A stretch of DNA of 61,755 nucleotides, counting the filler, from Globobulimina sp. (taxonomy: Eukaryota), in assembly GCA_003354225.1 (NCBI GenBank). It is 20 parts of 20 records of this genome, joined end to end, with 100 filler letters (N's around TTAATTAATTAA, not from the genome) between each part and the next. Parts side by side here need not be neighbours in the genome. Positions count along the whole stretch, not along the records: positions 9,288 to 12,282 come from PIVH01004092.1; 19 more parts are not named here. One strand, 5' to 3'. This document shows positions 1 to 58,765 of this stretch, piece after piece. The position numbers and the translations under genes were made by a program. The notes beneath the pieces are model-generated. The model was not told the DNA's origin. It was given only the letters and a program-made list of their open reading frames with translations, and did no database searches. Every line of letters starts with the position of its first letter. Within the stretch, counting starts at the first letter, position 1.

Positions 1-2182
1 TTTTTGTGAAATAAGATCAATGATATTTTTGTTTTTATCTGTGCAAATCTGATATTTTTTGTTTTCCTACCAAAAACGCCAATTAGTCAATGTTAAGCTT
101 GTGTCAGATAAACAAGTGGGAATATAATCTTCCCATTCTTGTTTTGCGGACAGAGTGATTGTGTTTGATGGTATTGCCGGTGTGAAGGGCAGAGCATTGC
201 GACCACAATCTTTATTGAATGGAATGAATATGTTTTTGCAAAATATGGACATTACAATGCGAAGAGATCCTACCAATTGGCGACCAAGGATTAATAAAAG
301 ATTTTGTAGGAAGGATATGGAACAGAGGAAGTCAAATAATTATTTTTATCTTGATGGAGCAGATTGAAATTCGTATGTTGATTCTACGTGGTCTGCATCT
401 GGTTTGTTTCAATTAAATGCACTTTGTCTAAATGAATGCGTTGATGAAAATGTGTAACTAATCAGGTTGTCCAGCCTCACTGTTCTATTTTAATGTATAT
501 GCGTAAAACACAGTGTGATGATACGTGTGGTTTCTGTGTCACCGAAAAACTTTCTTCATATTAAAAAGTAAAAACTGTCTTCGTGCTTTTATTAAAGTGA
601 TGAGCAACCAAACACAAACAAAAAGGAAACAACGCATTGTTAAAAATGCGTATGTAGACATTGATTCTGTTGATATAAAGCATGGAGATGGATATTGTGA
701 TTGGATAAGAATTACGAAACAAAAATTGAAGGTATTTGCCAAAAAAACAGATATACCAAAAAAAACAGATACATTGTATAAATAATTTAAAAACACGCCG
801 CTTTTTTACAAAACAGGTGAGACAATCTAAATTATTAGAGGTTAAAATCACTGAAATCGAACTGGTTGTCAATGACACAATAAATAGCTCAGCTGCGAGT
901 GGTCATTTTTTGGTTAAAAAAGAAATAATTGATGATACATTGAAGAAATTATACGGTTTGATTGATAAATGGAAAGGTTTTGATTTATCAGGCACCAAAA
1001 CCAAAAAAGCATTAACTCGATTTCGAGATTATTTTGTGAAATCCAAGAAATGGTTTGATCAAATTAAAAAGAAGGTATTTGGTATATTTTGGTTGTCTGT
1101 GTTTAGGGCCATTCCATCGGTTTGTACATTCAAACTACATTCACTGCATTCACTGCATGTACATTATTTTAATTGTCGCTTATTTTTTGTGTGTAGTCTA
1201 TTGACAGCAATCGTCAATTATTATTGTCTATAATTAAAGAATTATTTGTGCGAAAAATTAAATATAACAATACAAAATTAGTACCGCCCATAAATACGGG
1301 GCCAGTCATTGCTTCTAAAGAGTTACAAAATCATTTATTACATTTAGATGATTGTCATTCAATAAAAATACAAGAATGGAAACATGAATACGCAAATAAT
1401 AAGCAAAGAGCCGCCGCAATACGGCATAAAATCGAATCGCAATTATTTCGTTTGGCGGCAATTGCAAATAGTCATAGTGTCGCCATACATGGCCAAAATA
1501 GTGCTGGTCAGACTCAGAGAGCAACATTCCAAGCCAGAACAGATTCAGACAGCAACATTCCAAACAATAATGGTGTTGATGTACGCACCGTTATTCCAAG
1601 CAATATGAGCAATTCTTATGGTGCAATCCGTGGCATTTCGTATCAAGTCTCCAGTCTAAGATATACTCCGCTTGTACCTCAAAACAGTTTGGTACCGGAT
1701 ACCAGTTCAATTGTATACTCATTTTTGCTTTATGTACTTATCGATAAATAATTAACTTATTAAGTTTACACTTTACACAGATCAATATTTAATATTACCG
1801 ATGCCGATGCCGATGCCGATGCCGATGCAGATTCAGATTCAGATTTTCCATGCAGATGCCGATTCCATGTTTTAATTTATCACTTTGGTAAATTATAAAC
1901 TGTGTATTCTGTATGCTATATATCATTTCTTTTTTACTGTGACACTATCTATAATTCTATATATAATTAGTATTCAAATATTTTATTTTAATTGTCAAAT
2001 ATTTTATAATTAGTATTGTGATTATTCAACAAAAAACAAATACTTCGAAACAATATCATAGCGTCCCTTAAAAAAAAACAAATACTAACATACAAAAAAG
2101 AAATAATTGCCAGCGAACTGAAAGATTTATTTAACTGTGCATCAAAAAAAAATCGTTCAGTTACATTTAATCAAATCACAGC

Positions 2183-2996
2183 ATGGCAACAAACGGTAAA
2201 CTAAAAAAGCGAAAATCACTACCACCGAAACCACGGGCACCAAAACCACCAAAAGTAAGTAAAAATGGCGCAACCAAACGCAAAATAAGCAAACCAAAAA
2301 AACCAACACCTCCCACTCCAATGTCCCCATCTAAACCAAAGAAACCACCAAATCTAAAATCGCCACACAAACCACCAACTCCAACTCCACCACATAGTTA
2401 ATTAATTTATATTATATTTTGTATACAAACAGTTAACAGCAATAAAACACAAACAAAGAGCCAAAAAAAAGCAAAAAAAGAGTGCCACCGCCTCCAATAA
2501 ACCGTATCAAATCCCGTTCAACAATCCGTCCCTCACTACCTCGACAACAGTCGCATTCAACCATTACTATGAAAAACAAAAAGAAGAAACCGCCTCCAAA
2601 ACGAACAAAATCATTAACCAAAGAAGACAAAAACAAAAAGCACAAAAACAAAAAAAAGCGCAAATGTAAGCGACCGCCGCGTGCACCGCCACCGCCCATA
2701 AAACCCATATTTAACCATCCGACCATTGGGGAATTTTACAGTAAGCGCACGCACAAAAAACAACTGCGAACAAGAAAGCTGCCATCCAAACCAAAGGATG
2801 TCAGTATTTATTTCATTTTAATGGCGAAAATCTATCCATATACAATCAGCATATGCTTACAACACAAATTAAGCCAAATATTGGCGAAATTGAGTAGTAT
2901 GTTGGCAGGGAATGAAGAAATATTAGCGCTGGTTCTCGCTGGTCGTAATGACCGCGATCGTTCATTGTCGTCGATCAGCAAGAAAATAAACGCCAA
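2183..2996 (+). CDS. Lys/Pro-rich low-complexity protein, spliced, 3' partial
   Basis: Consecutive K/P-rich ORFs 2183-2401 and 2482-2996 separated by an AT-rich GTTAAT...ACAG intron-like stretch near 2397-2439; no recognisable domain. Confidence 0.4.
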
Positions 2997-6624: not shown

Positions 6625-8979
6625 TTAATAACAGATTGAAAGATAAAAAACGAGCAACACATACAACGGACGAACAATAATTTGATTTGCATCATCAGCT
6701 TCTTGTGTGGTTGTAGTTGAGTTAGTGGCTCCGGATGTTGTTGTCATGTTAGTTACTGGATTTAATCGGATTCGGGCTAAATATCCATCGCCACCATTTA
6801 ATAGGTTATCCGCAAATGTTAAATACATAAAATGATCCTTTCCGAGATTAATACTTGTTAATAAACCATAATTATTTGTATTAATACTAATAACACCAAT
6901 ATCACCATGCTCGGCGTTGGAAATCGCAATACGAACACCATCAACCTTTCCCCCTCGAATGTCATTATAATAGCATTGCCATAAATTACCCCAATTATCA
7001 AATTCAATGTCAGCAATTATTGTGCCATCATCAATAACACTTTCATCAATGTTACTCGTATCATACGTTAAGGCATTATTCAATGATGCATCAGTTTCTT
7101 CATATTGCATATTACCAAAATCCCATTCTAATGTTGGATTATTTGGACTAAATCTCTCATTTAAAACACCCAATAAATTCACACTAAATACATTGCCAGA
7201 AACATCATTGGTAATACCAGAGTAACCATACTCGGACGTAATCAAAGACTCTACATTTTCATTATTAAAATTAGAGGCTGATACTCCCCAAATACCATTA
7301 ATCCCATTTTGCGGATTTACAGCTGCCAATGCTATATCACTGAGATATAAATAATCATTAAAATAATGTATAGAATAAGGACCACCAAAACGTAACCCAT
7401 TAACTTTATAAATCTCATCTATAATCTCCCCAGTTTCAATATCAATTTTTGCAATTCCTTGCGAGTCCTGTAATGCAACGTAACCATTCCCTTCAGAATC
7501 AAGTGTTATTCCATACGGACGCCCCGCAATTTCGCCAATAGCAACGATATTATTATTCTCTAATTTGTATAATCTTCCTCTGGAAACGTCTAAAAATAAT
7601 AAATAACCGGTCTCATTATCACCAACCCATACACTGTCTTGTAACTGTCCATATTTTGCAGAAATCAATATTTCAATCTCAAAATCACTGATCATGTCAA
7701 TAAATCGCCAGATATTAATAAACGAAACATCGCCAGATGCCACTGTCAAAATGTTATTTACAGTTAATAGCGTCGGATCATGCGACCACAGAGCAATATT
7801 TTCGTCTAAATTGGCCACCGAAAAATTCAATTCAGGCATAAATTCTTCCAATAATGCAACAAATGGAGCATTCATAAATAGCCCCCACGCAGCCTGTCCG
7901 GCTCCAGTGTCTGGATTATATCTGTCATTGTAGGTTGATACAGTTATATTTGAAGCGCGTTGGGCATCACCCAAACGAAAATATTCCTCCTGTAGTCTCC
8001 AAACCCATGGTAAATAATTCTGATAGGATTTGCCCATATTACCAATATCACCCCACATTACAGCTGTGCTACGAAATAACAATGACTCGTCACAATTTGG
8101 TAACAGCTCAATACGCGAGGCACCGCAATCATTTTTTATTAACGGTAGAATAGGATCATTACCGTATAGAGTTGCATTGAGAAACGCTTCTAAATCCGCG
8201 GTTATTGTGGCAAATTCGTCAATATATTCATAAGTTAATGTATTCTCGACCTCCCCCAATGCATTCTCACCGATATAGGCTGATAATGGTGTAGCCCAAT
8301 CACAGTCACACGAGGCATTGGCTAATATTTGACGCATCATATCGATACTTCGCGCGATGACAGTGTCAGTTAAGCCTTTTGCAGCAAAAAAAGCATTATT
8401 TAATCCATTGTGTTGCATTCGCAAACTAACCGCTGCCATTAATGTAATTAATTTATCGCCAGAATCAAATTGAATAAGGTCTCGATACCACGCAGTTTGT
8501 TCTAAAAGATAATAAGATGTGGTGACGGCATCCAATGCATGAATATTGGTATGATAATATTTGGAATGGGTTAAAATGTTTAATGGGTAATTTTTTTCTG
8601 CTTCGTCTACATAGCGTAATATTGTATCGATGGAAATATTCGTATCATTCAATATTTTTAGCCCAGAATCTGATGTAAATATTTTATACAATGTAACAAC
8701 TAAAGGTCTACCATTTACTAACGGTTCTAAACCAAACGCATGATGATTAAACTCGTAATCATTAATGTCATATTCTGATAACGCATTTGATGCATGCGAC
8801 CAGGCATTTTGAGCAAATAAAAATGGTTCACCTGTTCCCATTGCTGCATAAACAACGCATGTCGCCAAATATTGGATTACTAATATAAATACTGTATATA
8901 TATATACATATTTGAATGTGGTACATGTATAAGAAAATAGGAGTACATATACAAATCCGTGCTGTATATATTGATGCAT
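6625..8979 (-). CDS. Class I phosphodiesterase-like domain (HD motif lost) fused to an SMP-30/gluconolactonase-like beta-propeller; predicted signal peptide and GPI-anchor tail; start uncertain
   Basis: PDE motifs YHTNIHALD, AAVSLRMQHNGLNN, GDIGN and WVWRLQEEYFRLGD; propeller motifs such as PYGITLDSEGNGYVA and ADIEFDNWGNLW; hydrophobic N-terminus; Thr-rich spacer followed by a terminal hydrophobic tail. Confidence 0.8.
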   Translation of the reverse strand: MHQYIQHGFVYVLLFSYTCTTFKYVYIYTVFILVIQYLATCVVYAAMGTGEPFLFAQNAWSHASNALSEYDINDYEFNHHAFGLEPLVNGRPLVVTLYKIFTSDSGLKILNDTNISIDTILRYVDEAEKNYPLNILTHSKYYHTNIHALDAVTTSYYLLEQTAWYRDLIQFDSGDKLITLMAAVSLRMQHNGLNNAFFAAKGLTDTVIARSIDMMRQILANASCDCDWATPLSAYIGENALGEVENTLTYEYIDEFATITADLEAFLNATLYGNDPILPLIKNDCGASRIELLPNCDESLLFRSTAVMWGDIGNMGKSYQNYLPWVWRLQEEYFRLGDAQRASNITVSTYNDRYNPDTGAGQAAWGLFMNAPFVALLEEFMPELNFSVANLDENIALWSHDPTLLTVNNILTVASGDVSFINIWRFIDMISDFEIEILISAKYGQLQDSVWVGDNETGYLLFLDVSRGRLYKLENNNIVAIGEIAGRPYGITLDSEGNGYVALQDSQGIAKIDIETGEIIDEIYKVNGLRFGGPYSIHYFNDYLYLSDIALAAVNPQNGINGIWGVSASNFNNENVESLITSEYGYSGITNDVSGNVFSVNLLGVLNERFSPNNPTLEWDFGNMQYEETDASLNNALTYDTSNIDESVIDDGTIIADIEFDNWGNLWQCYYNDIRGGKVDGVRIAISNAEHGDIGVISINTNNYGLLTSINLGKDHFMYLTFADNLLNGGDGYLARIRLNPVTNMTTTSGATNSTTTTQEADDANQIIVRPLYVLLVFYLSICY

Positions 8980-9728
8980 ATGTAAAAAGATTGTGATACA
9001 TACAGATTCGTTTGACAAAAGACATATTATAAGAGGATTTATATTGTAATTAATTATAACAAGTATATAGTAGTGGGGCCACATTCAGCCAGGGTCTAAG
9101 TCTGGCTCCATACTCACCGATTGCTTAAACATCCCGGCGAGGAAATAAAGTTGGTGGGGTCTGATGCCCCTTGGAAGTTTGAAGGATNNNNNNNNNNNNN
9201 NNNNNNNNNNNNNNNNNNNNNNNNNNNNNNNTTAATTAATTAANNNNNNNNNNNNNNNNNNNNNNNNNNNNNNNNNNNNNNNNNNNNCGTTACTATTATA
9301 AAATACAGTGATCCAGAAATACGATATTCGAATTTATGCCATTTGGTGCAAGGGTTTGCAAATTGCAAGTGATATTTTCCTTGCTACAAAACTGAGTTTG
9401 TCATTACAGAGGAATTTTTCGACACACCTTCTCCTTTGCCATGGGAGCGTGTGATTGATAATGATGGATGAAAAATTTTTAATTTACCTGGAATTGCACC
9501 GAATGGATCAACTGCAAATGTTATCTTTACGAATGATAGCCAGCAAAACGTACTCAACACGTACAATAACGTTATCCGATAATACATAATACCAATTAAT
9601 GCAAGTTTGCGACTTTAGATGATTGGCTTTGCGAATCTGACAGAAAGCAGCTGATCAACCAACTAGACAGTCACAGAATATATATGTTTCAGTATCAGTT
9701 CAAAGCAAAAATTATATAAAAAAAAGAA

Positions 9729-9961
9729 TGGTTCGGGTAGGATTCAAACCTACATCGTTGCGAATTGGGTCCTGCATTGGTTGAACTGTATTATGCGGAC
9801 AAATTACGGCCTGTAAATCCTTGGATTTTCAGGGGATCTCAAAACCGCGAGATCCTAACGGCCAAAGAGAGAGTTGGTTAGTAACCACCATATTGATGCA
9901 GGTAAACCTGCTGAGACGACCGAAATCGTAGACGCATTCTCTATCATTGAGATACCGAACC
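9729..9961 (-). tRNA. tRNA-Arg(ACG) with a 161-nt intron (9765-9925) at the canonical 37/38 position
   Basis: Acceptor stem GGTTCGG/CCGAACC plus A73; D arm TCTC-AATGATA-GAGA; anticodon arm TGCGT-CT-ACG-A^T-TCGCA; T arm GTAGG-TTTGAAT-CCTAC; followed by TTC and a T8 Pol III terminator. Confidence 0.8.
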
Positions 9962-10756
9962 TTTTGTTTTTATGCTAACAGCAAAACATAGATATTTATA
10001 ACATTGCGTGATGTGACAACATCTCATTTATGGGATTGACATTGGTATGAAGTTCATGTATATGTAATGGCCAATTCACACTTGTGAAGTTTTCCAAATG
10101 CTCAGAACTTCAAGTTTCTCTTTTTATTGACAGAGAATAAATAGCCAAATGCATCGGTCCTATTGTTACTGCGTAAGATATTTATTATATTTCATCCTCG
10201 CAATCTGTACATATTTTTTTACCATATGTGGTCGTTACGGAATGTTGGTAAATGACCTATTTTTTGGTAATCATGAATCTCAAAGTATGAAAGATATAAA
10301 ATTAAGTATATGTTTTTAAAATACTATCAATATCCGACGTATAAATGATAGGATCTTGCGACTGATATCGAGATTTAGACCAATGAGGTCGAGAGTATTT
10401 AAATCGTTGCGACGTTTCGGTCGAGACAATGACTTTTACGAACACGTTTGAGTTTTGTAAATTAAATTAGAAAAACATTAAGTTGCACACTAAAAAATAG
10501 ACAAACAAACACACAATTTAAAGTTAAAAAAATGTATAATATAAAAAAGTCCGAACCCAGGACAAAAAAGAAAAATAAAATATAGGGATCTTTCGACATA
10601 AAAAACAAAAATAAAACTACCTATAAACAAAAAATAGAATTCAAACAATTTTTATAAAAACGATAGTAAAGAAAACATAAAATTAAAAATAAAATTATAA
10701 TAATTAAAAACATTTTTACATGGCCACATCTGAATAATTTATTTGATAATAGTTTC

Positions 10757-19176: not shown

Positions 19177-21564
19177 TCATCGCCACACGAGGCATCCATT
19201 TATAATCTGGTTATTTACGCAGCCATGCTTTGATATGATAATCTTGTGCTCACTCTTTATTTTATCAATATTTGTTCCTTGATACACATTATTTATAACA
19301 TACACATCAATCCTAAAATTATAAAATGTAAAATCAGGTCTATAGATTTGAATATGCCGTGCCATTGCATCGCTATATCGTTCATCAATTATTATTTCTA
19401 TTTGTTCTATATGTGAGTGTGGATTTTGTTGTATAAATGATAATATCGAATGATATATGGATACGTTTGTAAGAAATGATAAATCTTTTTTCTGTGCATT
19501 ATAAAGTATCCGCTCTGTATTTGGAAATACTGTCAATAACTTATTCAAATGTATCCAACCATAATCATAACAGTACACCAAAAACAATAACCGAACATCA
19601 CATCTTCTGTTCCTAAATCTAATCGTAGTTACATTTAAACAGTGATTATGCAATAATTGACGAAAATATTCAGGACAACTTTGAAATTCATGACAATGTC
19701 TTCCTGTCGGATAATATCGATGTAATTCGTGTGATAATAATCTCCACACCATTTGTTCCTCAGAATCTGCTCTCCCTGACAATAAATTGCCATTTTCACT
19801 GTGGACCATTGTAGAATTTGGCATCATGTCATAATCATATATGTCAATCATGGAATATGTCATTTGTTTCAGACCTTTTACATATTTCACACAATTAATT
19901 CCTGATAGAGGAACCATTATTGTATTAAATTGTAACTGATACAAACCACCAATTGTGAATATCTCCTGTTCATTGACATAATCGCTGACCCATTGACAGT
20001 CAAAACATGCAATTCGATCATCATGATCCCAATATGACTGCTTCCATTTAACTCTCCAATATTCTGAATCCAATCCTATCTCCAGAACCATACCTGTATT
20101 GCCGCTAAAATTGTAAGCAACTTCAAAACTTTTGGTTGTGCTGGTTGGCCCTTTTATATATGGAGCAACTGTATGAAAAGTACGAGTTTGATCGATGCCA
20201 TGAAACAGACGAATGCGTACGCCAGCACAGTCATACATACTCATCCCAAAACATTCCACATTTTCCCTCAACAATTTACCCATAAAATAATATTCTGTAT
20301 GCCTTCGTTTCAAACTCTCAGCTGTTTCATTGGTGTGCAAACGGTATGTTTCAGTAAATTTTGATTGAAGTTCAGTATAATTGCAATATACCATCTGCGC
20401 AATCAAATGATCCAATGTCATTATGGAATGATATATTAATTCATAACACTGAGCTGTTGTCTGTCGAGGACAAAACATTTGCCGCGCAATTGCAGTTTGT
20501 CTTAATGTCACAGCTTTGTTACTTAAGTTATTCCATTGCGCCAGCGACAGGGTACAAATCTGATTCTGTATCAGTTCTTGCTTCAAATTTTGATACCTGC
20601 GACGAATGTACCAATCATTGAGAGAATAACCGCGATTTGCTGGTGGAGATCCTATATATGTTTGACTCCATAGGTGAGCATCATCCTTCGTTGCTATGTT
20701 GTTTCTGTAATAATCCCAATAAAAATATCTAAATCCCATACTATAACTAAGTTGTGTGACTTCTGTAAGTTCTGTTGACTTATTTGTAATAAATCTCCGC
20801 CTTCTGTTTGTATATGGACGTGTGTAACATGTCGCACTTTCGAACGGCTGCGTATTTACTTCTAAGTCATCAATCTCAGCAACTGCAGATAAAATATCAT
20901 CTTTGCTACTCTTATTGGAGCCAGATACATCATCAATGTTTGATGAGTTTTGTTAATAAATTTATGTGCTGTGTCAAATGAATGGAAATAAAAACAATGA
21001 ATTCTATCCAATAATTGCTGCCGAACAATATCTTGAGCATATTCGTTACCAAAATATAATTTTTTCAATTCATTATCATGTTTGGAATATTTATATTTAT
21101 CTCTGTCATTACGTTGCATTGATAAACAGTTTGCACCATGGTATAGCTTTTGTTTTTTTGTTTGATGATTACTTTTGTTATTTAATATATTATATATGTC
21201 ATCAAACTCATATTTATGAATTTTTAACAAATGGTTAAAATCATTCGATAATTTCACGGCATCCACATTTTCATCAAATACACCTTTGCCTTTATTTCGA
21301 TATAAGTGATATTTTTGTAAGGTATCACTTATACTCTTCAAAGGAATACATTTTGACAGCTTGCACATATTGTTGCTGAATGTCTGATTTTTAATTATAT
21401 TTTTCTGCATTGAGTTTTGACTGAGACTGATTCCATGTGATCTGAGATCAAAATAGCCGGTATCAGGTAATGCCTCCAACACAGTAATAAGTTTTGTCAG
21501 CATGTCCATATTCTGTGTATCTGTTTGATCATATTTGAATTTCTTTGGTGGTAGTTTGCCTGCC
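19177..21564 (-). CDS. Large protein with an ADP-ribosyltransferase-like core; one frameshift near 20945; 5' partial
   Basis: LFHGI...GPTSTTKSFEVAYNFS...GMVLEI...WVSDYVNEQE has ARTC-like motif order; the upstream ORF 20862-21509 overlaps an open frame leading into ORF 19177-20739. Confidence 0.6.
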
Positions 21565-47452: not shown

Positions 47453-48336
47453 ATGTCTAAGGTAATTTATTCTAATAACTATCCTATTGTCAAGCTTATA
47501 TTAAAACTGTTTTCAGAAGTTTTTGATAGAAAACTTTGTGGAAGATCAAGCAATCGATGTGGACACCGATGGAGATGATGAACAGGAGGATGAAGATGGA
47601 GATGCTGATGAAATGGGAAGTTTCATAGACGATAATGAGGAGGAGTATGATGAGGATGAAAGTGTGTTTAATTTGAGGTTGAACATCCCCTCACCTCCTT
47701 CGTCGAGGGGGTTACGAGGTAAGCACTTTACTGTTTTTGAAATAGGCTAGAATCCCGAAAATGGTGAACATTGTTGTAGTGTTTTTGATGGATAACTTGG
47801 GAAATACTCAAATTATTACTCTCAACACAAATCAGTCAGCAAACTAATGAAGTCGTTTGTTGTGTGTTTTGGGGGGGTGGTCCAGTAAATACTAAGTTTT
47901 TATGTTTCACTTTTTTAGCTGTTGTCGACAACAATGGTGAAAATAGTAATATTGATGGTGATTCTGGTGATAGTGAAAGTGATGGGTCAGTGGTAGGTAG
48001 TGTCCAACACCCCAAAAGGCGAAGAATTCAGATCAGTGGTAAGTTTTGTATGATTAGTAGCATTTTTGAAGCAAATTGTGGAGTAATAAATGGTTGTGCT
48101 TCCATTAAAGACCTAAGCAATAATGATCGAATGATAATAAGCAACGACAAAGATTTTTTGTTGCAGATAGCAGCAGCAGCGGTGAGGAAACCAACCCAAG
48201 TCATAATGGTGAAGTGGACATTGGCGATGATGATGATGAAGAAATTAACACAGCGAGCGATAAGATAATAAGGGTTCCTGGACCCTCTTTGACACAGTAC
48301 AGAAATGGAACTGGCAAAGATACCATAAGAGTAAGA

Positions 48337-58665: not shown

Positions 58666-58765
58666 NNNNNNNNNNNNNNNNNNNNNNNNNNNNNNNNNNN
58701 NNNNNNNNNTTAATTAATTAANNNNNNNNNNNNNNNNNNNNNNNNNNNNNNNNNNNNNNNNNNNN

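Follow-up and report, generated by a model that had tools for sequence, protein, structure and literature searches.

tRNA-Arg(ACG) is an uncommon intron host. Archaeal tRNA introns can host box C/D guide RNAs, the circular RNAs released from tRNA introns in animals (tRNA intronic circular RNAs, tricRNAs) depend on a helix-bulge arrangement at the junctions, and short interspersed nuclear elements (SINEs) carry their tRNA-like part as one contiguous piece at the 5' end, followed by a body and a tail. Excerpts of one account of eukaryotic canonical introns quote lengths of 6-133 nt and describe an endonuclease that measures from the tRNA body and tolerates varied local sequence (PMC4090602), and an excerpt of another terms ~64 nt 'unusually long' for a green-alga tRNA intron (PMC13578239). 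Here we describe a split tRNA-Arg(ACG) gene at positions 9961..9729, minus strand, of a 61,755-nt window (the whole stretch of DNA analysed, joined from 20 parts of the Globobulimina sp. assembly GCA_003354225.1), which gives a clean cloverleaf after excision of 9925..9765 (161 nt). We think it fairly probable, judging from sequence features, that the gene belongs to a multi-copy nuclear tRNA-Arg(ACG) family of RNA polymerase III (Pol III) type in an AT-rich protist, with an exceptionally long intron at the canonical position. Across the family the insert appears to range from ~107 to 180 nt, with 161 nt in the window copy, and the simplest view of it is a tolerated intron rich in structure, not a hosted gene.

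As in canonical nuclear introns removed by the Sen/TSEN endonuclease and ligase, the insert stands one base 3' of the anticodon and pairs with it, its 3' junction is predicted to be single-stranded, and the gene, one of a multi-copy family, has flanks of Pol III type; unlike them, the insert measures 161-180 nt against the 6-133 nt quoted in the excerpt of PMC4090602, offers no anticodon-intron (A-I) pair and sits in a tRNA with A19:U56. The tricRNAs, which come from long metazoan tRNA introns in the excerpted account of PMC4536317, likewise combine a long structured insert at 37/38 with a multi-copy tRNA gene, and the enzymes at work would be the same, leaving ends open to circularisation by a ligase; the tricRNAs differ in lineage and in tRNA, and their junction helix-bulge is not drawable here. 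Archaeal introns hosting box C/D RNAs share an anticodon-loop insert of ~100 nt or more and a possible second gene product, but the present locus has no C-box, no Rfam snoRNA match and no bulge-helix-bulge, and is eukaryotic.

The two exons were delimited as follows:

9961..9926, minus strand: 5' exon, 36 nt; acceptor 5' strand, D arm, anticodon-stem 5' strand and loop to A37 (ARAGORN)
9764..9729, minus strand: 3' exon, 36 nt; position 38, anticodon-stem 3' strand, T arm and acceptor 3' strand (ARAGORN)

The original prediction had placed a 161-nt insert at 9765-9925 within a tRNA-Arg(ACG), and these coordinates were borne out by the ARAGORN call made after excision. On the intact 61,755-nt window ARAGORN returned zero tRNAs, with intron mode on or off, whereas cutting out the insert by its coordinates gave tRNA-Arg(ACG) with a score of 105.3. 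The cloverleaf has a 7-bp acceptor stem, a 4-bp D stem, a 5-bp T stem and an anticodon stem of 4 bp plus U.U at 31:39, and its anticodon, D and T loops are each 7 nt. The 5' exon ends in CTACGA (anticodon ACG plus A37) and has the D loop AATGATA with G18 and A19; the 3' exon has the variable loop ACGAT, the T loop TTTGAAT with U56, and discriminator A, after which comes TTC, the CCA being not gene-encoded. Further tertiary positions, in standard numbering, read U8-A14, A15-U48, C13-G22-G46, G18, T54-A58, U33 and A37. The insert falls between nucleotides 37 and 38, the canonical site. Its exact limits are ambiguous by as much as 2 nt, since each junction is followed by TT and a shift of that size leaves the mature sequence unchanged; 161-nt deletions starting at 9763-9766 all gave Arg(ACG) with equal ARAGORN score.

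We assessed how often such a call arises by removing an arbitrary 161 nt in each of 55,432 constructs; tRNAs were reported in 11, all with starts at 9762-9773. With deletion lengths of 8-300 nt at every fourth start, 10 of 12 junction-spanning calls fell at the 9729-9961 locus. The other two were irregular 'tRNA-Phe(GAA)' calls near 47.8-48.1 kb (window 47757-48117, plus strand), obtained when 251 or 174 nt were deleted up to about 48061 (scores 103.9 and 101.1), and were judged false on account of mismatched stems, extra loops and coding-looking or AT-rich sequence. These controls show a background of ~2 loci per 62 kb for a brute-force split-tRNA search. Because spurious calls score 101-104, the ARAGORN score alone does not separate the gene from noise; regular stems and the other evidence set the tRNA-Arg gene apart.

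Part of that evidence comes from a second full copy, L001, a metagenome contig retrieved with a 25-mer of the 3' exon (single contig found), in which positions 675-926 hold the same gene with a 180-nt insert. The window and L001 are similar from 10035 to 9712 only (83.7% over 349 columns), with unrelated flanks on either side, so L001 represents another copy in another genomic place. Its cloverleaf is alike, and all four tRNA stems are kept. The shared flanking elements, and the comparison of these two full copies by segment, were:

9962..10035, minus strand: upstream block, 74 nt, common to the window copy and L001; 67 matches, 6 mismatches and 2 indels
9961..9926, minus strand: 5' exon, 36/36 identical in L001
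9925..9765, minus strand: insert, 143 matches, 7 mismatches and 9 indel events
9764..9729, minus strand: 3' exon, 34/36 identical, both changes at variable-loop positions 44-45
9712..9728, minus strand: trailer, 17 nt, TTC-T8-ATATAA; 17/17 identical in L001

Change events between the copies numbered 2/72 nt in exons and 24/235 nt outside them (Fisher p=0.053), which is at most suggestive of a lower rate of change in the exons.

The upstream block carries a TATA-like TATAAATA at -39..-32 (window 9993-10000) and CAA at -5..-3 (9964-9966), both intact in L001, and resembles the upstream promoter and start region of a Pol III gene. Downstream, a T8 run (9718-9725) resembling a Pol III terminator starts 3 nt past the tRNA end and is conserved in L001, again with CCA unencoded. 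TATA-like and CAA motifs upstream and poly-T downstream are known tRNA-gene flanking signals in the excerpted text of PMC13578239, and the plant and yeast genes treated there likewise have a TATA-like element ~30-40 nt upstream, CAA before the 5' end and a long poly-T; in contrast to them, the conserved block here, whose motifs are putative, reaches -74, beyond what such motifs need. A scan for bacterial-type promoters and terminators was uninformative for a eukaryote.

We next aligned contigs from four public runs (X1-X4, two studies) to positions 9300-10700; five runs were found, none of them RNA. In X1, the single-copy left flank had a word depth of 3.8-4.4 while bins across 9723-9957 summed to 56-182, a 15- to 45-fold pile-up of contigs between the tRNA ends, although summed contig depth is not a copy number. 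The same bins reached 155-366 in X2, which comes from the other study and carries another organism label and in which the flank is absent, and the upstream block 9962..10035 had a summed depth of 28-44 against ~3.9 in single-copy flank. Loose contig ends coincide with the gene ends (9729; 9956 and 9970). Many distinct short variant contigs thus cover exactly the gene, and the repeated unit is the whole gene, comprising upstream region, exons, insert and terminator, not the insert alone. Two X2 contigs have a differing trailer (loose end 9729), again with a T-run ~10 nt past the tRNA end. Because the repeat includes 74 nt upstream and ends at the terminator, it points to gene duplication at the DNA level and not to RNA retroposition.

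The contigs also vary in the insert. One 118-nt X2 contig is identical to 9786-9903, whereas contigs in X1, X2 and X4 share a joint (9818>9873) that skips exactly 54 central nt, leaving an insert of ~107 nt. In one contig each of X1 and X2, the 3' exon is joined to a different insert end (loose end 9766), so exons outlast insert sequence. Among the variant sites listed, none lies in the exons. No exon-exon (intron-less) contig was among those listed, where the 54-nt skip is the only joint within the unit, and contigs show presence, not absence.

Taken together, the copies suggest an insert of two conserved ~53-nt arms, with a hairpin centre between them that changes through slippage and indels:

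9873..9925, minus strand: insert 5' arm, 53 nt; GCAGG-TTTA-CCTGC and TGGTT-ACT-AACCA hairpins; near-identical in L001
9819..9872, minus strand: insert centre, 54 nt; hairpins GGATCTC../..GAGATCC and CCTG.AAATC/GATTT.CAGG (folds, contigs and L001)
9765..9818, minus strand: insert 3' arm, 54 nt; hairpin GTCCGCAT-15 nt-ATGC(A)GGAC (folds)

Every helix named in the original prediction was located where it had been placed, and the insert is indeed GC-richer than its flanks (0.46 against 0.32-0.34 in 500-nt flanks), with an equal exon GC of 0.458. Both the minimum-free-energy (MFE) structure and the centroid of the insert contain GCAGG/CCTGC, an 8-bp GGATCTCG/UGAGAUCC hairpin and CCUG.AAAUC/GAUUU.CAGG. 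The ACGAU/GUCGU helix, proposed to sequester the anticodon, reappeared in the predicted fold of the whole precursor. It consists of a 5-bp hairpin formed by the first 10 nt of the insert with A34-A37 plus the first insert base, and would lengthen to 6 bp with the G that the majority variant carries at 9915 in place of the window copy's C; every X1 and X2 contig carries the L001 base at 9915. For TGGTT/AACCA the picture was mixed: the helix is present in the sequence, in the two-copy consensus and in the L001 fold, but the MFE structure of the window copy has a different 4-bp helix. At its other end the 3' arm is predicted to finish in a single-stranded CCAA directly before the 3' junction.

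Fold stability exceeds chance, though only modestly. The insert has an MFE of -44.5 in sense (z -2.20, 4/200 shuffles as stable), its antisense reaches z -1.95 (9/200), and the whole precursor z -2.56 (2/200). A long-range CCTGCAT/ATGCAGG helix had been put forward as one state of a switch; possible on paper, it lies outside both MFE and centroid. G>A at 9771, found in most other copies (~60% of depth in X1 and X2), would weaken this helix, and since no predicted fold contains it, local hairpins are favoured over a two-state switch, one event being thin evidence. In L001, C>T plus G>A turns the bulged 8-bp helix of the 3' arm into a register-shifted, perfect 7-bp helix, so that the one compensated change sides with the local 3'-arm hairpin and not with the proposed switch. 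The L001 centre has a 22-nt local duplication, changed hairpin loops and a lost inner AAATC/GATTT hairpin, and keeps both basal stems (GGATCTC/GAGATCC and CCTG/CAGG). The centre thus appears indel-prone, and dispensable in some copies.

The earlier statement that the insert is not a recognisable group I or II intron, snoRNA or ribozyme agrees with the Rfam searches and with the lack of a C-box motif. At gathering score Rfam gave no match on the window, and permissive searches around both copies (E up to 10) gave only inconsistent sub-threshold noise, with no family matching the insert; the best hit (E=0.007), on the L001 strand opposite to the gene, spanned the end of the insert, the 3' exon and the trailer, stayed below gathering score and had no counterpart in the window. 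As for box C/D and H/ACA signs, the insert contains no TGATGA, a single CTGA and only internal ACA. At 161 nt it is too short for a group I or group II intron, and neither class matched at gathering or permissive thresholds. Origin as a decayed tandem copy of tRNA halves was also rejected (12 local-alignment tests of 1,000 shuffles each, all p>=0.13). BLAST at word size 7 found no second copy of the insert or gene within the 61.7-kb window, viral contigs gave 0 matches to a 5'-exon 27-mer and an insert 20-mer, and 185,579 prokaryote genomes gave 0 matches to a 24-mer of the T arm and acceptor. Eight matches to the insert 20-mer in unrelated bacteria extended no further than 20-23 nt and were dismissed as chance.

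These features suggest how the gene could work. Going by the conserved motifs, TFIIIB would be placed on the TATA-like motif at -39..-32, with transcription starting near the CAA at -5..-3 and ending within the T8 run 3 nt beyond the tRNA. In the predicted folds the transcript would form a cloverleaf in which A19:U56 holds the D-loop/T-loop contact in place of G19:C56, with the anticodon masked by a hairpin of 5-6 bp involving the first 10-11 nt of the insert. The tRNA splicing endonuclease, measuring from the tRNA body, may then cut at 37/38 and at the single-stranded 3' junction, after which a ligase would join the halves, CCA would be added and A34 deaminated to inosine, giving a tRNA able to read CGU/CGC/CGA. 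These codons are in use: across 5,543 codons in 11 of the 39 open reading frames (ORFs) of >=150 aa, picked by Pfam hits or length, CGA occurs 66, CGT 26 and CGC 17 times (109 in all, with AGA at 97). A decoder with anticodon ACG/ICG is therefore required.

Splice-site geometry was examined in constrained folds. A fold with the cloverleaf enforced is as stable as the free MFE (-69.3 against -68.8 kcal/mol for the window copy, -81.5 against -80.9 for L001), and leaves the 3' junction single-stranded (CCAA|U between the 3'-arm hairpin and the anticodon stem). A two-copy consensus fold proposed instead that the anticodon arm pairs with the insert's 3' arm in a long helix, which would break the anticodon stem; we set it aside, and since the two sequences are near-identical and the cloverleaf is equally stable, the helix is indistinguishable from the cloverleaf fold.

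G19 and C56 are near-universal in cytosolic tRNAs and belong to the internal promoter core. Several observations weigh against a spliced, decoding tRNA gene. Both of these bases are replaced, by A19 and U56, so that this hallmark of cytosolic-type D and T loops is absent. The double change keeps a Watson-Crick 19:56 contact and cuts both ways, being structurally coherent yet touching the internal promoter. An A-I pair is impossible, C32 standing opposite C (the third-last insert base), and no bulge-helix-bulge is drawable: positions 32-35 (CTAC) do not pair with insert positions -6..-3 (ACCC), and the archaeal-type arrangement of two 3-nt bulges with 4 bp between them at the junctions is absent from the constrained folds. 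As the endonuclease measures from the tRNA body, according to the excerpt cited above, the missing A-I pair lowers confidence in splicing without excluding it. The insert (161 nt; 180 nt in L001) exceeds the quoted 6-133 nt, although a ~107-nt form also exists, and in the window copy it contains a T4 run. Contigs covering part of the unit occur, as expected of decaying repeats, and the ARAGORN score of 105.3 barely exceeds the two spurious calls (101-104).

The most serious rival, doubtful in our view but with a real chance of being right, is a dispersed repeat or pseudogene family derived from a tRNA, in which no decoding tRNA arises by splicing from the 233-252-nt Pol III transcript, should there be one; signals for promotion, processing and stability would come from the tRNA-like ends, and the insert would be the body of the element. 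The large excess of variant contigs, part-unit fragments included, speaks for it, as do the loss of G19/C56, the missing A-I pair and bulge-helix-bulge, the insert length beyond the range excerpted from PMC4090602 and the closeness of the ARAGORN score to false positives; substitution divergence in the insert (7/150) is also not clearly different from that in the exons (2/72). Like tRNA-derived SINEs and tRNA-like Pol III RNAs, the family has many diverged copies, a tRNA-derived promoter region and a Pol III terminator. Unlike SINEs, it has a complete cloverleaf interrupted at 37/38, and its repeat takes in upstream DNA and goes no further than the tRNA 3' end. In the two full copies the unit runs from 10035 to 9712 between unrelated flanks and has no tail, target-site duplication or body past the tRNA 3' end. 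The 74 nt of upstream sequence, which looks untranscribed, and the end at a terminator argue for gene duplication, and both full copies keep every stem and the compensated tertiary pair, with the insert exactly at 37/38.

A broader reading, which we regard as improbable, makes dozens of Pol III tRNA-Arg genes in a foraminifer-like protist a production line for an abundant intron-derived RNA of 107-180 nt, possibly circular, with its own function. The two invariant arms would then close a scaffold that hides the anticodon until splicing, and the hairpin centre would differ between copies. If true, this would be the longest nuclear tRNA intron family spliced by proteins and, in Rhizaria, the first RNA hosted by a tRNA. 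In an alternative form of the reading, the molecule stays unspliced at 233-252 nt and is a tRNA-shaped Pol III RNA of a new kind with a giant anticodon arm.

We hold it quite improbable, specifically, that the excised insert is a functional small RNA, linear or circular, with the arms as scaffold and the centre as an exchangeable module. The arms are near-invariant between copies, a 118-nt stretch is found again, unchanged, in a run of the other study, and hairpin stems survive loop indels and one register-shifting compensated change; excised tRNA introns can, moreover, be stable circles in animals and regulators in yeast, according to excerpts of PMC4536317 and PMC13079951. Set against this, neither copy matches an Rfam family at gathering score or has a C-box motif, the fold z-score is modest and similar in antisense, and the centre is wholly deletable. 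The two full copies are also too alike (~95% over aligned insert positions) for conservation to signal selection, so insert conservation has little power. The suggestion that the insert is a functional or small mobile RNA found no support, the repeated unit being the whole gene.

Very unlikely is a mobile DNA element resembling a miniature inverted-repeat transposable element (MITE) that entered the anticodon loop of a progenitor tRNA gene and was later multiplied with it. TT flanks both insert ends, the insert is hairpin-rich and GC-richer than the genome, insert-like sequence is occasionally joined to other sequence, and in X2-X4 insert depth exceeds one or both exon bins. However, a 2-nt repeat is expected by chance, insert and exon GC are equal, no second insert copy, alone or otherwise, occurs in 61.7 kb, terminal inverted repeats are not convincing, and in X1, the sole run with cover of the single-copy flank, depth over the insert is not above that of the exons.

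Mitochondrial tRNAs often have a D loop that lacks GG and a T loop that lacks C56. Were the gene a nuclear copy of an organelle one, like a nuclear mitochondrial DNA segment, such loops and the high depth over the unit would be accounted for, but this is scarcely credible, with organelle origin unlikely, given copies in different nuclear flanks with Pol III-type signals, contigs that form many short variants rather than one deep long contig, no T-arm and acceptor 24-mer in the 185,579 prokaryote genomes and, for a retarian host only, mitochondrial genomes that carry no tRNA genes in Retaria, Foraminifera included (excerpt of PMC10127745).

If the favoured interpretation, a long canonical-position intron, is right and splicing takes place, the size range of protein-spliced nuclear tRNA introns would extend well past the quoted 6-133 nt, and a cytosolic-type tRNA would have swapped its G19:C56 tertiary pair for A19:U56. 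Without splicing, the family would be an ordinary repeat derived from a tRNA. The gene escapes standard finders (ARAGORN in both modes and the Rfam tRNA model), so the CGA/CGU/CGC decoder would be reported missing in a poorly studied lineage. Literature searches brought up no paper dealing with tRNA introns in Foraminifera or Rhizaria, and the family is a system in which tRNA-intron RNAs, stable or circular, could be probed in a lineage other than animals, yeast and archaea.

The window itself is eukaryotic nuclear DNA of ~33% GC with all three stop codons in use, and encodes phosphodiesterase-like, HDAC8-like, chitin synthase, EF-hand, RGS, RRM, F-box and Dph1 proteins. Their close relatives are metagenome, EukProt or MMETSP entries; the best named match of Dph1 is from the foraminiferan Reticulomyxa filosa (46%), and neither the HDAC8-like protein nor a lineage-specific ORF has a named close relative. 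A foraminifer-like host is therefore plausible, as a tentative assignment. A 520-aa ORF at 19177-20739 (minus strand), which has no Pfam domain, has 36 relatives (E<=1e-5; best 74% identity), 34 of them in one style of EukProt entries, and looks like a member of a large lineage-specific paralogue family. An 819-aa ORF at 6625-9084 (minus strand) matches only a C-terminal cyclic-nucleotide phosphodiesterase domain (profile 144-237 of 238); its first ~80 residues look non-coding, which makes an intron or a later start probable in this gene model. On L001, a 474-aa ORF with many hydrophobic stretches lies 345 nt downstream of the tRNA gene (1271-2695, minus strand) and shows no similarity to the window by tblastx.

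Pairs of 44-N runs recur every ~3,092 bases (38 runs, for example 2997-3040/3053-3096 and 9188-9231/9244-9287, continuing to 58722-58765), a regular spacing that looks like masking rather than assembly gaps; the nearest pair is ~440 nt from the tRNA gene and does not overlap it. The gene sits in a 1.7-kb gap between two minus-strand ORFs, and the same intergenic region has two further stretches of raised summed depth, 10052-10145 (up to 231) and 10334-10660 (up to 187) against ~4-10 nearby, with loose contig ends at 10075-10113 and 10341-10484. Neither stretch matches Rfam (E<=1), 10334-10460 folds no better than shuffles (z -0.2), and both are probably other dispersed repeats.

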